Source: Candidatus Sherwoodlollariibacterium unditelluris (GTDB taxonomy: Bacteria; Omnitrophota; Gorgyraeia; Gygaellales; Profunditerraquicolaceae). Taken from it: a stretch of DNA of 35,198 nucleotides. Below the pieces are notes generated by a model, which worked only from the letters and a program-made list of their open reading frames with translations, was not told where the DNA came from and did not search any database. Below, in pieces: positions 27,515 to 32,942 of the stretch. Positions within the stretch are counted from its first letter, which is position 1. Every line of letters begins with the position of its first letter. Location of the stretch: the NCBI GenBank assembly GCA_002771995.1, contig PCRK01000167.1:1-35198 (forward strand), read 5' to 3'. The translations under genes and the position numbers were made by a program.

Positions 27515-28288
27515 ATGAAAAGATATATTCTCTCTTTGTTTATTTTATTCTTTTGTCTCTCTAACGTAATGGCCGAAGATGCGTGGAATACTCTTAAGTC
27601 CACGCACTTCGTTGTCTTTTATAAAAACGCCCCGGAGGATTTTGTAAAGTTGGTTACGGATAAGGCAGAAGTTTATTATGACCAAATAGCTGAAGGATTA
27701 GGCTTTATGCGTTTTGATTTCTGGCTTTGGGATAATCGGGCTAAGATTTACATCTATGACGATGCTAAAATTTACTCTGCTAGAACAGGACAGCCGGCAT
27801 GGTCTCTAGGTATAGCTATCCCGGGAGTTAAGGCAATAGAAACCTTCCCTTACGCAAATAATTTTATAGAAACAGTGCTTCCTCACGAAATGGGGCATAT
27901 TATTTTTAGGGAATTTGTAGGTTTTAATAATTCCGGTATACCTCTATGGTTGGATGAAGGAGTAGCTTCTCATCAGGAAAAGGCAAAGTATTCCCAAGTG
28001 GGCATATTTATCCGTAAGGCGATGGTCGAGGGAAATTTTATGGATTTAAAGAAGTTGGCTTCCTTCTATAGCGTTGTCAATCTTGACCCCAAACTTGTAA
28101 ATATATTTTATGCTGAATCATTCAGCCTGATCGACTTCTTAATTAGGGAATTTGGCCGGGATAACTTTGTGCTTTTTTGTCAGAACCTGAGGGATAAAAG
28201 GAACTTAGAAAGAGCTATGGCGTCAGTTTATCCTTTCGGTAATATAAATGAATTAGACCAGGCGTGGCAGAAGTATTTAAAGAAATGA
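27515..28288 (+). CDS. Secreted HExxH...E zinc metallopeptidase-like protein (peptidase-MA / gluzincin-like) embedded in the dcw cluster
   Basis: Signal peptide MKRYILSLFILFFCLSNVMA. Zinc motif LPHEMGHIIF with a downstream PLWLDEGVA that offers a candidate third ligand Glu. Its ATG is 1 nt after the murG stop, and its stop overlaps the murC ATG (ATGA). Confidence 0.7.
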   Translation: MKRYILSLFILFFCLSNVMAEDAWNTLKSTHFVVFYKNAPEDFVKLVTDKAEVYYDQIAEGLGFMRFDFWLWDNRAKIYIYDDAKIYSARTGQPAWSLGIAIPGVKAIETFPYANNFIETVLPHEMGHIIFREFVGFNNSGIPLWLDEGVASHQEKAKYSQVGIFIRKAMVEGNFMDLKKLASFYSVVNLDPKLVNIFYAESFSLIDFLIREFGRDNFVLFCQNLRDKRNLERAMASVYPFGNINELDQAWQKYLKK

Positions 28289-29646
28289 CTAAACATTATC
28301 ATCTAATAGGCATCGGCGGTATAGGTATGAGCGGGATTGCGCAGTTGCTTTTGCGCTTAGGCTATAAGGTCAGTGGTTCAGACCTAAAAGAAAATAAGAA
28401 TACGGTAAAACTTAAGAATCTAGGCGCAGAGATTTTTATCGGCCATAACTCGGGTAATATTAAGGGAGTGGATAAGGTAGTCTATTCCTCGGCGATAAAA
28501 GAAGATAATCCTGAGATTAAAGAAGCAAAGAGGTTAAAAATACCTTTAATTATGCGGGCTCAGGCATTAGCGCAGCTTATGCAGGCCAAGTCGGTAATTA
28601 CTGTTGCGGGAAGCCATGGGAAAACCACAGTTACGTCTTTAGTTTCATGCCTTTTGCTTGAGGCCGGGTTTTCTCCTACTGTGGCCATAGGCGGAATCTT
28701 AAAAAATATAGGTACTAATGCTTGCATGGGCAGTGGGGAATTTTTTGTTGCCGAGGCGGATGAATCAGACGGATCTTTTCTTTATTATAAGCCGAAATTT
28801 TCCATAATTACTAATATAGATTATGAGCATCTTAATTACTATAAGAGTTTCGAGAAAGAAGTTGAGGCATTCCGTAAGTTTTTGGGAGCCACGGATAAAG
28901 ATGGTTGTGCCTTTTGCTGCAGCGATGATTTAAATCTTAAAGGTATTCTTAAAGAATATAAAAATAAATATATTCTATTTGGGTTAAAACCGGGCGCGGA
29001 TATCTACCCTCGGAATATAAGGTTGGACGGCCTCTCTAGCGAATTTGACTGTTTTTTTAAGAATAAATTTGTGGCGAGGTTTAGTCTAAGCCTTGGCGGG
29101 GAGCATAATATTTCTAACGCCCTTTCGGTAATTGCTTTGGGTTTAGAATTGGGGATAGCGCTTAAGTTTATTAAGTCCGCGCTTCTAGGATATAAAGGCG
29201 TCGGCAGGCGCTTAGAGATAAAATTTAAGGATGAAAGATATATGGTCATTGATGATTACGCGCATCATCCTACCCAGATTAAGGCGACACTAAAGGCAAT
29301 AACCAACTTAAAGGCTAAGAGGGTCGTTGTCATATTTCAACCTCATCGTTTTACGCGTATGCAATTGCTCTTTGAGGAATTCACTAAGAGTTTTGACAAC
29401 GTAGGCTGCCTTATAATTACTGACATATACCCTGCGAGTGAATCGCCTATTCCAGGGGTAAATAGTTTTAATCTTTATGAGAAAATAAAAGAGCGTACTC
29501 AAGATAAGAAAGTTTATTTTATTCCTAAGGAAGGGATTATAAACAAAGTTTTAGAAATAATTAGGCCTGGGGATTTGATTATTACCCTCGGGGCAGGAGA
29601 TATTGCGAGGTTAAGCGATGAGTTGGCAGAAAGAATTAAGGGTTAA
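28285..29646 (+). CDS. murC: UDP-MurNAc:L-alanine ligase
   Basis: N-terminus MTKHYHLIGIGGIGMSGIA and P-loop AGSHGKTT. ATG 28285 overlaps the upstream stop. The ORF-track GTG 28264 would add 7 aa. Confidence 0.9.
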   Translation: MTKHYHLIGIGGIGMSGIAQLLLRLGYKVSGSDLKENKNTVKLKNLGAEIFIGHNSGNIKGVDKVVYSSAIKEDNPEIKEAKRLKIPLIMRAQALAQLMQAKSVITVAGSHGKTTVTSLVSCLLLEAGFSPTVAIGGILKNIGTNACMGSGEFFVAEADESDGSFLYYKPKFSIITNIDYEHLNYYKSFEKEVEAFRKFLGATDKDGCAFCCSDDLNLKGILKEYKNKYILFGLKPGADIYPRNIRLDGLSSEFDCFFKNKFVARFSLSLGGEHNISNALSVIALGLELGIALKFIKSALLGYKGVGRRLEIKFKDERYMVIDDYAHHPTQIKATLKAITNLKAKRVVVIFQPHRFTRMQLLFEEFTKSFDNVGCLIITDIYPASESPIPGVNSFNLYEKIKERTQDKKVYFIPKEGIINKVLEIIRPGDLIITLGAGDIARLSDELAERIKG

Positions 29647-30499
29647 AACTAATCAGCCGTTAAAGGCCAAAACCACCCTTAAGATCGGAGGGCCGGCTGA
29701 ATTTTTTAGCGAACCTAAAGGCCTTGCGGAATTAAAACTTCTTATTAATAAGGCCAAAGAAAATAACCTGCCTGTTTCTGTTATTGGGGCAGGCAGTAAT
29801 TTGCTGATTAGCGGCCGAGGAGTTAAAGGTCTTTTAATAAAATTAAACTCCCCTTATTTTAAAAAAATTTCATTAAAAGATAATTATATTGAGGCAGGTA
29901 GCGGCGCTATGCTGCTTAAGCTTATTCAATTCGCCAAAAGGAGGCCTTTGAGCGGAATTGAATTCTTGGCGGGTATACCCGGAACACTAGGCGGGGCATT
30001 AGCGATGAATGCCGGTTGTTGGGGTAAGAATATCGGGGATTTGGTTAAGGAAGTAAAGGTTATGGATTATAAAGGTAGTGTAAGGAAATTAACCAAGCGG
30101 GAAATAAAGTTTAGTTACCGTAAATCCGGCCTGGGAAATTATATTATATTAAGCGCGGTATTAAAACTTAAGAAAGAAAGTGCTAAGGTAATCAACCGGA
30201 ATATAAAAGATTATATTTTGAAGCGGCGCAATAGCCAAGATTTGACTTTTCCCAATGCCGGGTGTATCTTTAAGAATCCCGCTTCTTTATCCCGAGGCGC
30301 GGGTGAGTTGATAGAGCTTTGTGGGTTAAAAGGCAGGAGAATCGGGGGTGCGTCTATTTCTATTAAACACGCCAATTTTATCCTAAACAAAGGAAATGCT
30401 AATGCTGAAGATGTGCTAAGGCTTATGCGTTTAGTAAGGGAAAGGGTAAAGAAGAAATTTAAGGTAACTTTAGAACCGGAAATAAAAATATGGCAATAA
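29618..30499 (+). CDS. murB: UDP-N-acetylenolpyruvoylglucosamine reductase
   Basis: FAD-binding motifs TLKIGGPAEFF and GAGSNLL, and catalytic-region GCIFKNP. The last 16 codons lie in the left 67-bp direct repeat. Confidence 0.9.
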   Translation: MSWQKELRVKTNQPLKAKTTLKIGGPAEFFSEPKGLAELKLLINKAKENNLPVSVIGAGSNLLISGRGVKGLLIKLNSPYFKKISLKDNYIEAGSGAMLLKLIQFAKRRPLSGIEFLAGIPGTLGGALAMNAGCWGKNIGDLVKEVKVMDYKGSVRKLTKREIKFSYRKSGLGNYIILSAVLKLKKESAKVINRNIKDYILKRRNSQDLTFPNAGCIFKNPASLSRGAGELIELCGLKGRRIGGASISIKHANFILNKGNANAEDVLRLMRLVRERVKKKFKVTLEPEIKIWQ

Positions 30500-30516
30500 A
30501 CTCGCGAACTTGTGAA
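30450..30516 (+). repeat. Left 67-bp direct repeat (murB 3' end + orphaned ddl-type start)
   Basis: Identical to 30930-30996 except c30494 versus g30974. The offset is exactly 480 bp. Confidence 0.95.
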
Positions 30517-30929
30517 TTTAGAGCACGATATATTTTGTTCTTCGGGATATTGCTCGCTTACTGAAATCTCTCACCGTTCTTTTTAATGAATCTGTCGTGT
30601 TTTTCGCTTAAGTCGCTTTTGCCCTTACGGGCACAGCAAAGGTCTCTCGTATTTTTGGCGGCTGCAGAACTCGGCCGTCCCGCTCTAGCGGAGACGGCCT
30701 CAAACAGCTTCGCCGTCCCGAGATTGCCCCGACGATATGTCGGGGCCTCGGGATTCCCAAAAATACTCGAGCTGCTTTGCCTAAAAGCTCCATTCGCTCG
30801 AAATCACGCCAGATTCATTTAGCGAAGCAGCTTTATCTTATAAATGACACTGGTAAGGTTCGAGCGAATGTCGTACTTTTCGCCTCTGCGAAAAGCACGG
30901 CCTGAGCGAGAAACTTGGCAGGGTCATTT
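30517..30929. other. GC-rich, highly self-complementary non-coding insert (candidate structured RNA, or relic of an integrative or MITE-like element)
   Basis: It is bounded by the 67-bp direct repeats and visibly more GC-rich than its flanks. The only ORFs are mutually overlapping Arg/Ala/Pro/Leu-rich ones on both strands. Many nested complementary segments are listed in the findings. Confidence 0.5.
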
Positions 30930-30996
30930 AGAAGAAATTTAAGGTAACTTTAGAACCGGAAATAAAAATATGGGAATAAACTCGCGAACTTGTGAA
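30930..30996 (+). repeat. Right 67-bp direct repeat (pseudo murB 3' end + functional ddl start)
   Basis: See 30450-30516. It contains ATG 30970, which ddl uses. Confidence 0.95.
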
Positions 30997-31941
30997 CTCG
31001 CGAACTCGCGAACTAACTTTGGCAGGATTGGCGTTTTAATGGGCGGCCCTTCAAGCGAAAAGAAGATTTCGCTTAAGTCAGGCCATGCTGTCTTAAATAT
31101 TTTAAAAGAGTCAGGGCAAAAAGTTGTCCCCATAATTATTAAGACAGATAAGGTTAAAAACAATGTCCGTTTGCTTAAGTCCTCGAATATAGATTGCGCC
31201 TTTATTGCTTTGCACGGCTCATTTGGCGAGGACGGCGGGATTCAGAAGATTTTAGAGTCGCTCAAGGTTCCTTACACTGGTTCGGGGGTTAGAGCAAGTA
31301 AGTTAGCCATGGATAAGGTTGCCTCGCGCAATATTTTTAAAAAGCACGGTTTAAATGTGCCGCCCTCTAAAGTAATTAGCGAGAATTCTTATAAAATTGG
31401 CAATATCGACAAATTTGGTTTGCCGTTAGTAGTTAAACCGGCTACGCAGGGCTCAAGTATTGGGCTTTCTATTGTGGATAGTTATAAAAATATCCCTAAG
31501 GCAATAAACCTGGCTTTTAAATTTGACAAGAGGATAATTATTGAAGAATACATTAGAGGCAGGGAATTGACAGTGGGGATACTCAAAGAAAAGGCGCTTC
31601 CGGTAATTGAGATTATCCCTAAGCATTTTTTCTTTGATTATCAGGCTAAATATAAACAGGGCTTAACAGATTATATTGTTCCGGCTAAGCTGTCGTTTAA
31701 GGCCGCTCTACGGATAAAGAAAGCAGCTTTGTCAGCGCATAAGCTCTTAGGCTGCTTTGGTTGTTCTAGGGTGGATATTATATTAGATGACGCGGGTAAT
31801 CCTTTTATCCTTGAGGTAAACACAATACCCGGATTTACCTCAACTAGCCTCTTGCCTAAAGCAGCGAAAAGCGCGGGGATAGATTTTAATCATTTGTGCC
31901 TGGAATTAATCAAGTTGGCATATGGGCCTCGCACCTTCTAA
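30970..31941 (+). CDS. ddl: D-alanine--D-alanine ligase
   Basis: GVLMGGPSSEKKISLKSG, HGSFGEDGGIQ, ATP-grasp VKPATQGSSIG, LEVNTIPG. The N-terminal 17 aa (MGINSRTCELANSRTNF) are encoded by the right direct repeat plus an 8-nt tandem array. No alternative in-frame start exists before the conserved core. Confidence 0.9.
   Translation: MGINSRTCELANSRTNFGRIGVLMGGPSSEKKISLKSGHAVLNILKESGQKVVPIIIKTDKVKNNVRLLKSSNIDCAFIALHGSFGEDGGIQKILESLKVPYTGSGVRASKLAMDKVASRNIFKKHGLNVPPSKVISENSYKIGNIDKFGLPLVVKPATQGSSIGLSIVDSYKNIPKAINLAFKFDKRIIIEEYIRGRELTVGILKEKALPVIEIIPKHFFFDYQAKYKQGLTDYIVPAKLSFKAALRIKKAALSAHKLLGCFGCSRVDIILDDAGNPFILEVNTIPGFTSTSLLPKAAKSAGIDFNHLCLELIKLAYGPRTF
30981..31017 (+). repeat. 8-nt-period tandem array (GAACTNNN x4) in the ddl 5' end
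   Basis: GAACT occurs at 30986, 30994, 31002 and 31010 (cgaacttgtgaactcgcgaactcgcgaacta). It encodes ...RTCELANSRT. Confidence 0.85.
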
Positions 31942-32783: not shown

Positions 32784-32883
32784 GGCCACGGCTTATGGAG
32801 CGCTTAGCGAACATAAGCCGTTTGGCCGAACTTACCCCCGCTGTTTCGTTTTGCTTTCGCAAAGCGAAACAAAACGACGGGGG
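32784..32883 (+). other. Two long GC-rich hairpins in the ftsQ-ftsA spacer
   Basis: The first is ggccacggcttatg (32784-32797) / cataagccgtttggcc (32812-32827), 14 bp with a 2-nt bulge. The second spans 32835-32883, about 20 bp, imperfect, with outer ccccc/ggggg and a gcttt-cgc-aaagc tip. Confidence 0.7.
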
Positions 32884-32942
32884 TTAATTCGCACAATAGC
32901 TTACTCACACTTTTAGTGTTCGTAAGTTATGGGCTCATTAAG

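Follow-up and report, generated by a model that had tools for sequence, protein, structure and literature searches.

The window analysed here, a 35,198-nt stretch of DNA from Candidatus Sherwoodlollariibacterium unditelluris, encodes the cell-wall enzymes MurB and Ddl, and the best named homologues of its MurB are MurB proteins of Candidatus Omnitrophota. Between the two genes lies a 413-nt insert (30517-30929) with a 67-nt direct repeat on either side. The insert is a mosaic of repeat modules, namely module U, element A, a 21-nt spacer and a mini copy. The features of the locus are as follows.

29618 to 30499, plus strand: murB (UDP-N-acetylmuramate dehydrogenase), upstream host gene; open reading frame, with Pfam FAD_binding_4 and MurB_C found on the identical protein
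30450 to 30516, plus strand: direct repeat copy 1, 67 nt; covers the final 50 nt of murB with its stop codon and a further 17 nt, with a derived C at 30494
30517 to 30583, plus strand: module U, a fragment that resembles a left end and belongs to a sister repeat family; core GCTCGCT at 30553-30559
30584 to 30820, plus strand: element A, a full-length 237-nt family member, corresponding to the closed multi-helix structure described in the initial annotation; covariance model match of 251.6 bits, E = 3e-70
30821 to 30841, no strand assigned: spacer separating element A from the mini copy; includes AAGCAGCT, complementary to 30770-77
30842 to 30930, minus strand: 89-nt mini copy, inverted; has both ends and the invariant loop, closed by a capping hairpin of 12-14 bp (30870-30901)
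30930 to 30996, plus strand: direct repeat copy 2, 67 nt; ddl upstream region and first 9 codons, with the ancestral G at 30974
30970 to 31941, plus strand: ddl (D-alanine-D-alanine ligase), downstream host gene; open reading frame with Pfam Dala_Dala_lig_N/C

The two copies of the direct repeat differ by one mismatch (99 % identity). In the relatives L094 and L095 the 67-mer is single-copy and carries G at the position matching 30494. The borders of the duplication coincide exactly with those of the mosaic, the mini copy ending at 30930 where copy 2 begins, and the duplication restores the stop codon and 3' end of murB upstream and the start of ddl downstream. It could have originated as a long target duplication in one step, by unequal crossing-over between two nearby insertions, or as an att-type duplication. 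An empty site is found in a population of about 91 % identity, which joins 30449 straight to 30930, and also in relatives with 85 % and 73 % identical MurB; there, murB and ddl overlap by 10 nt. The insert has a G+C content of 49-51 % compared with 41 % in the window, and the genes around it have a GC skew of the opposite sign. An assembly artefact was considered as its origin and is ruled out by seven independent ENA and JGI assemblies that contain an identical insert.

Module U is homologous to positions 217-261 of locus L033 (81 %, E = 7e-5) and 193-227 of L025, and read depth in the source sample indicates that it is near single-copy. The sister families (with tips TAGCGGNTGGCTTGG...) have a CTCGCTCA / TTCGAGCG core in common. 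The spacer at 30821-30841 has no homologue at any other locus, the flanks of other family copies being unrelated. Beyond the murB-ddl insert, no further copies of the family to which element A belongs are present in the 35-kb window.

Element A is one copy of a previously undescribed family of small, dispersed, non-coding repeats of about 235 nt in Omnitrophota. More than 58 full copies, with unit sizes of 205-265 nt, were recovered; their sources are MAGs of Candidatus Omnitrophota together with metagenomes of freshwater, sediment and groundwater. A scan with one exact 21-base pattern (GCCTAAAANCNNCATTCGCTCGAA) matched 30 places in species-representative genomes, nearly all of them Candidatus Omnitrophota MAGs with up to 5 matches each, as well as 56 metagenome contigs. 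A covariance model built from 21 copies gave 98 matches in 537 kb of loci, many clipped by contig ends, and 58 of these are distinct full-length copies at E < 1e-40. Logan contigs from lake, sediment and groundwater metagenomes contain many diverged copies of 30584-30820, and in the source samples the right end is covered by reads about 7-9 times as deeply as the flanks. The genes next to the copies are unrelated housekeeping genes; Pfam analysis of ten neighbours yielded RuvB, ScpA, SpoIID, QueA, Band_7, FtsW, GGDEF, YchF and glyoxalase. The exact pattern had no match in viral contigs (IMG/VR), and neither PLSDB nor INPHARED gave a plasmid or phage match at blastn sensitivity, on which basis a plasmid or phage origin was rejected. 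A literature search found no paper linking Omnitrophota or Omnitrophica to MITEs, repeats or structured RNAs.

Copies of 95-99 % identity occur in unrelated flanks within one metagenome or MAG. Their ends are sharp: contigs run into unrelated sequence at 30819-30821 and read depth jumps at 30584, and the ends of element A were set accordingly. Relative to co-directional neighbours, 17 copies have the same and 15 the opposite orientation (14:12 in the first set). Deletion derivatives that retain only the two ends were found at L027, L013, L018 and L081, in addition to a joint of 30624 to 30781. With such derivatives present and the mini copy itself multi-copy, only the ends are needed. At the same time, genomes with no more than 68-92 % identity between the flanking proteins carry copies at orthologous positions between genes, namely directly after ruvB (L026, L088), further downstream of ruvB (four genomes) and within a single divergent intergenic region (shared by four to five genomes). 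These orthologous copies have rare terminal-helix variants in common, while their hairpin stems are entirely different yet paired.

No transposase, recombinase or other candidate enzyme was found near any of the 87 loci (537 kb, roughly 0.5-15 kb per locus), and clustering 730 ORFs from 86 loci in search of a linked transposase returned syntenic housekeeping genes only. The 1-kb stretch between two inverted copies at L026 contains no convincing gene. Nor did the loci contain a long form in which the ends enclose a gene, all left-to-right spans being 120-330 nt; it should be noted that the search pattern included interior sequence and that an autonomous form could have been missed. The flanks of 21 copies have no di- to deca-nucleotide in common as a regular target duplication would produce, and TA, TTA and TTAA duplications are inconsistent with the flanks. 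BLAST of the flanks returned only the 67-nt repeat at the window mosaic, which no other family copy possesses, and two non-adjacent matches, a 22-nt repeat in L028 and one of 17 nt in L026. Among the family loci collected there are no empty sites, as expected from how the loci were chosen.

The fold of the full copy is an elongated rod, topped by a Y of two hairpin arms, from which a single small side hairpin of variable form branches off. The rod starts with the terminal helix H1, continues through an invariant 8 x 8 internal loop and is completed by three further helices. Its parts in element A are listed below.

30585 to 30606, plus strand: 5' strand of H1, the left terminal inverted repeat, pairing with 30799-30819
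30605 to 30613, plus strand: left half of the invariant internal loop, consensus TCGCTCAGG (TCGCTTAAG in element A), with invariant columns T21, C22, G23, C24, T25 and A27
30614 to 30641, plus strand: 5' strands of two rod helices (30615-20 with 30783-88 and 30636-41 with 30775-80) and the side hairpin of variable length (30621-32)
30644 to 30658, plus strand: 5' strand of H2, pairing with 30757-30771 (87 %); helix 8, 96 % paired
30659 to 30715, plus strand: H3 arm (30659-65 with 30707-15), enclosing hairpin 30673-30699 with the conserved loop CTCTAG
30716 to 30753, plus strand: H4 arm (30716-22 with 30747-53), enclosing hairpin 30726-30746
30791 to 30802, plus strand: right half of the invariant internal loop (CATTCGCTCGAA), with invariant columns C212-G217
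30799 to 30819, plus strand: 3' strand of H1, the right terminal inverted repeat, pairing with 30585-30606

H1 was confirmed at 30585-30603 and 30801-19 (19 nt, 89 %), and its 10 outer pairs covary without exception across 58 copies, where 93 % of cells are paired. The left loop motif is kept in mini copies too, and the right loop motif occurs in the 35-kb window only at 30791-30802 and, inverted, at 30859-67. The hexamer TCGCTC has the same, direct orientation at the left and right ends and is not inverted, which implies a strand-asymmetric recognition step. Beyond the loop, the additional long-range helix 30615-20 / 30783-88 alternates between A-T and C-G at a ratio of 34:21 (alignment columns 40/361). 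The stems of the H3 arm have wholly different sequences between copies with pairing kept (helices 9-12). In the H4 arm, helix 13 is 100 % paired on 58 copies with 6 of 7 pairs compensatory, and in helix 14 this holds for 8 of 8 pairs. The family also has invariant sequence in unpaired blocks and in the loops of hairpins, such as CTCTAG and AACTCG. A 78-aa ORF (30586-30822) spans element A; it was rejected as protein-coding, being frameshifted, interrupted or startless in most of 20 copies.

The complementary segments listed in the initial annotation (among them H1, H2, a 12-nt pair and a downstream hairpin) are all present where it had placed them, and the minimum free energy fold of 30584-30820 alone reproduces its closed multi-helix structure with H1, the hairpin, H2, H3, H4 and the two inner hairpins. 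For 30585-30899, the RNA folding energy is -137.6 kcal/mol compared with -91.1 +/- 6.0 kcal/mol for 100 dinucleotide shuffles (z = -7.8); the minus strand of this segment gives z = -8.3, and folding of the whole insert gives z = -8.5 and -7.2. Homologues are rich in compensatory changes, which affect 58 of 82 pairs across 58 copies. RNAalifold predicted 56 pairs on 21 MAFFT-aligned copies, 35 of them with compensatory changes; 94.8 % of cells pair compared with 79.7 % in column shuffles, and the covariation score is 0.419 compared with 0.148 after shuffling and 0.04-0.09 with slid partners. Mapping the minimum free energy fold of element A onto the same 21 copies gives a paired fraction of 88 % of cells (77 % in shuffles), with compensatory changes in 46 of 83 pairs. 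For the 58 copies the corresponding values are 90.8 % vs 77.3 % of cells paired and a covariation score of 0.334 vs 0.110 shuffled and 0.03-0.08 with slid partners, in an alignment that was made by the covariance model and leans towards that model. One RNAalifold helix (104-110 / 169-174) with eight U·G pairs was rejected as a register error based on mutual information. Instead, the T/C of TTTT(T/C)GG covaries with the A/G of CC(A/G)AAAA (model positions 76 and 174; T-A 26, C-G 18), which supports H2 as originally drawn over the RNAalifold register. The structure of the element is thus under constraint: as folding beats shuffles and compensatory changes are abundant, the nested order represents a selected structure.

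The mini copy is a family member in its own right. End models searched with nhmmer match its left end at 30929-30899 (E = 6e-8) and its right end at 30879-30842 (E = 1.6e-4), and the covariance model matches it globally with 47.3 bits (E = 1.5e-11). Mini copies with exactly these ends are found at other loci of the same samples. It folds as one long hairpin, in which a 20-bp stem leads through an internal loop to a capped stem of 12-14 bp; the hairpin noted at 30872-99 exists, is centred on 30884-87 and corresponds to this cap. The initial annotation had also described 3' pairings competing with H1. The segments do exist, including the perfect 12-nt pair 30791-802 / 30859-70; they are not a conserved design, however, as the pairings stem mostly from the inverted mini copy at 30842-30930. 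With this copy inverted and placed 21 nt downstream of the full copy, complementarity between its right end (TTCGAGCGAATG, 30859-70) and that of the full copy (CATTCGCTCGAA, 30791-802) follows of necessity, and the left ends of the full and mini copies are complementary as well. The 8-nt pairing 30770-77 / 30825-32 lies in the spacer that has no counterpart elsewhere. At several other loci an inverted sister-family end lies 15-25 nt downstream. Since inverted ends cluster elsewhere too, the competing pairings are a by-product of clustering and not a conserved platform, and the apparent switch is accounted for by the position of the mini copy.

Taken together, 30584-30820 is probably one member of a family of non-autonomous mobile DNA repeats, restricted to Candidatus Omnitrophota or at least concentrated there. 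The family is multi-copy, recently spread, polymorphic in its presence and non-coding, and its base-pairing is kept by compensatory change. The initial annotation had likened the segment to a structured RNA or a switch. Its selected structure is upheld, while an RNA gene or switch is not favoured: the multi-copy nature with unrelated neighbours, both orientations, empty sites, the missing Rfam match and the lack of a G·U excess argue for mobile DNA. None of 4227 Rfam models gave a gathering-score match in the window, nothing credible was found in 30300-31100 at E <= 10, and no match overlapped any copy in 15 further loci. Weak miRNA and RSV_PBS matches (E = 1.6-5) were discarded as merely reflecting the inverted-repeat hairpin. 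It is nevertheless conceivable, if doubtful, that the copies are mobile or multi-copy genes encoding a functional structured RNA, which would scaffold or guide a trans-acting protein, or else stabilize or process any transcript into which the element has inserted. Such an RNA would account for covariation in every helix, for the invariant unpaired blocks and hairpin loops, for orthologous copies kept over deep divergence with fully substituted yet paired stems, and for one loop position with G/A opposite a constant T (32:25, pair 32/368). Further, 32 of 40 classifiable copies lie between co-directional genes and are thus probably transcribed, and family members occur in three metatranscriptome runs; these contigs, however, are low-depth and direction-less, run through the 3' end into the flanks and may include DNA. 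Structured RNAs normally contain many G·U and very few A·C pairs. No such excess exists in the variable helices of the family, with 47 G·T vs 53 A·C in an HMM alignment of 59 copies and 31-56 vs 46 in the covariance model alignment of 58 copies. An orientation preference is absent, mini copies without the whole Y-domain also multiply, no terminator-like site was found, and promoter-like sites are restricted to four on the minus strand, all outside the 413-nt insert, with none on the plus strand.

Several observations stand against the mobile-DNA model. No candidate enzyme or gene-bearing long form was found, and without a regular target-site duplication a defining MITE feature is absent. Persistence at orthologous sites with substituted but paired stems points to long-term purifying selection on the structure and the conserved loops, which is commoner in a functional molecule than in junk; the invariant unpaired blocks of the Y-domain are unaccounted for by pure mobility, family members appear in metatranscriptome contigs, and the 67-nt duplication is unique to the murB-ddl locus and has no mechanistic account. 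It is unlikely that the family, instead of being ordinary selfish DNA, is a new type of hairpin-based mobile element, in which a trans-acting enzyme recognizes a folded single strand by its terminal helix and the invariant TCGCTC/TCGCTC loop, and the Y-domain is a functional RNA or ssDNA cargo (e.g. a scaffold or guide for that enzyme) selected long-term at orthologous Omnitrophota sites. Another idea is that the whole insert is the remnant of an integrase-less, cis-mobilizable, site-specific integrative element that targeted the 3' end of murB; the 67-nt direct repeats would then be attL and attR, and the structured repeats secondary passengers. This scenario would fit a near-perfect direct repeat that lies exactly at both borders and is found at no other family copy, and it would also fit the way in which the duplication leaves murB with an intact 3' end and ddl with an intact start, much as att duplications restore their target genes. 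We consider it very unlikely, however, given that no integrase is present in the insert or the region of the 35-kb window examined, the insert consists almost wholly of repeat modules found separately elsewhere, the module ends are themselves the repeat borders (the mini copy end and copy 2 start at 30930), and a second instance of the composite was not found. Hardly credible, and largely refuted, is a cis-acting riboswitch or attenuator controlling ddl after murB with the alternative 3' pairings as its expression platform. The element does lie between two co-transcribed cell-wall genes, and 30791-802 can pair with 30859-70 instead of sitting inside H1, the two states being mutually exclusive. 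However, relatives have overlapping murB and ddl genes without the insert, and a fixed position or orientation relative to a regulated gene is absent, the element also adjoining ruvB, ftsW, GGDEF, ychF and other genes in both orientations (17:15). In addition, the alternative partner belongs to the inverted mini copy, the other competing segment to the non-conserved spacer, there is no terminator, and no riboswitch model was matched.

For the favoured non-autonomous mobile DNA repeat, we infer the following mechanism of movement. The unit itself comprises inverted-repeat ends of about 20 nt (H1) followed by the invariant 8 x 8 loop with TCGCTC on both strands of the fold, and the stem beyond the loop is capped either by a simple hairpin, as in the 89-nt mini form, or by the conserved two-hairpin Y-domain of the 237-nt full form. 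An enzyme encoded elsewhere in the genome may recognize and move the element in trans by reading the folded ends (H1 and the TCGCTC loop), probably on single-stranded or extruded DNA. Insertion would take place into AT-rich intergenic DNA without a regular target duplication and often beside earlier copies, thus creating mosaics. One such mosaic split the ancestrally overlapping murB-ddl junction, and the split was viable since each side carries 67 nt of the junction as a duplicate.

The family accounts for 0.2-0.5-kb spacers in the dcw cluster and other operons of Omnitrophota MAGs, which is relevant for annotation, and for assembly breaks at such spacers, as suggested by the many matches clipped by contig ends. 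With regard to mobile DNA, it combines an unusually rich, covarying branched fold with direct end motifs, the absence of a target duplication and orthologous persistence, which together point to structure-specific, probably single-strand recognition over a classical cut-and-paste transposase. For RNA discovery pipelines, it illustrates that strong covariation and z-scores can arise from DNA-level palindromic repeats, which the balance of G·T to A·C and orientation statistics separate from RNA. At the locus itself, the insertion uncoupled two essential, ancestrally overlapping cell-wall genes and was tolerated only with the 67-nt duplication.

Structured RNAs in Rfam, including orphan RNAs and riboswitches, resemble the family in their multi-helix folds, strong covariation and conserved loops and junctions. 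The family differs from them in matching 0 of 4227 models, in lacking G·U enrichment and a fixed context or orientation, in its mobility and in having deletion derivatives that keep the termini only.

A closer likeness exists to REPIN/REP-BIME elements, which are mobilized by RAYT (Y1/HUH) transposases. The 89-nt mini form is likewise a single long hairpin of two inverted ends, and both are extragenic, without a target duplication or adjacent transposase, and persist vertically for long periods. Clusters of alternating orientation form mosaics, as in BIMEs. In contrast, the units of the family are larger, and the full form carries a conserved structured insert of 150 nt. The REP head is a conserved 5' GTAG-type tetranucleotide next to a palindrome. 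The family has no such GTAG-type head, its invariant motifs being TCGCTC(AGG) and CATTCGCTCGAA, and no RAYT (Y1/HUH)-like gene was found in the locus stretches of roughly 0.5-15 kb each.

The properties of ERIC/IRU, RU-2 and RPE repeats and the criteria for MITEs were taken from a published account (PMC10969869). Like the family described here, ERIC/IRU, RU-2 and RPE are non-coding imperfect palindromes of 100-250 nt located between genes, mostly in transcribed stretches; both orientations occur, copy number varies, internal indels create size variants, no transposase is known for them, and they form stable stem-loops if transcribed (PMC10969869). The likeness to ERIC is behavioural only, as there is no sequence similarity and the host phylum is Omnitrophota and not enterobacterial or vibrio. 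Further, the family differs in its branched fold (rod and Y-domain), the invariant loop with direct hexamers and covariation documented in 58 of 82 pairs.

With MITEs (Correia/NEMIS, QMITE2 and IS630- or IS200/605-derived elements) the family has in common a length below 500 bp, terminal inverted repeats of about 20 bp (19-21 bp in H1), a non-coding and multi-copy nature, AT-rich intergenic targets, very stable predicted stem-loops and insertion polymorphism (PMC10969869). It departs from them in having no regular target-site duplication, no parent IS with matching ends found near the 87 loci, and terminal repeats that vary between subfamilies with complementarity kept. In addition, its subterminal motif is direct at both ends, which a classical DDE transposase acting on inverted ends would not require. 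The family constitutes a new, unusually well-structured type of ERIC/REPIN/MITE-like intergenic repeat.

A 67-nt direct repeat with a single mismatch borders the 413-nt mosaic inserted between murB and ddl, so that the junction of murB stop and ddl start, overlapping in the ancestral state, is present twice. In relatives, the 67-mer is single and murB and ddl overlap by 10 nt. Long target duplication, unequal crossing-over and an att-like duplication are all candidate sources of the repeat. At its 5' end, the ORF called as ddl begins with codons occupied by a tandem array that is missing in the relative whose MurB is 85% identical to that of the window. Because the N-terminal extension of ddl differs in length among relatives (323, 337 and 313 aa), the true start may lie further downstream than called.

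Window 30450-30516 and 30930-30996: 67-nt direct repeat, one copy at each border of the mosaic
Window 30979-31014: tandem array, 4.5 copies of the octamer AACTCGCG

Two further features of the window were observed. Inside the dcw cluster, a gene with a Peptidase_MA_2 domain (window 27515-28288) lies between murG and murC; it is also found there in the 85% relative and is missing in the relative with 73% MurB identity (L095). In several assemblies, gene callers report that the ftsQ-like gene is separated from ftsA by an ORF of 30 aa (window 32784-32915; L001 6178-6270), which had no Pfam match.

Elsewhere, copies of the repeat family occupy orthologous sites in different genomes, with flanking proteins 68-92% identical. 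These copies have rare terminal-helix variants in common while their hairpin stems are wholly substituted, and in one close relative (L039) the copy is inverted relative to the others. The copy of L011 (5642-5971), at 330 nt, exceeds the typical length of 235-265 nt by roughly 30-95 nt and carries the extra sequence within its 5' third. Large insertions are thus shown to be tolerated in the variable side hairpin.

Downstream of ruvB: L026 5309-5555; L088 11656-11901; L011; L028; L085
Further orthologous sites: L029, L031, L039, L073, L091

Full copies are also present in two bins labelled by their submitters as uncultured Planctomycetales (L020, L027, L034). Errors of binning or labelling could account for this, as could genuine spread beyond Omnitrophota. 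The match in Cloacimonetes UBA6097 (L016) covers 29 nt only and is probably due to chance.

A sister repeat family has the tips TAGCGGNTGGCTTGG and shares the core TTTCGAGC / TTTCTCGC with the family of element A, the full copy between murB and ddl. Sister repeats give weak global matches to the covariance model built from 21 family copies (E = 7e-4 to 2e-3) and are frequently located 15-25 nt away from element A-type copies, tail to tail.

Sister repeats: L008 6162-6321; L028 5980-6100; L066 2099-2259
Sister repeats directly 3' of the element: L021, L023, L024, L027, L032

These intergenic regions are mosaics of related hairpin repeats, an architecture in which they resemble BIMEs.
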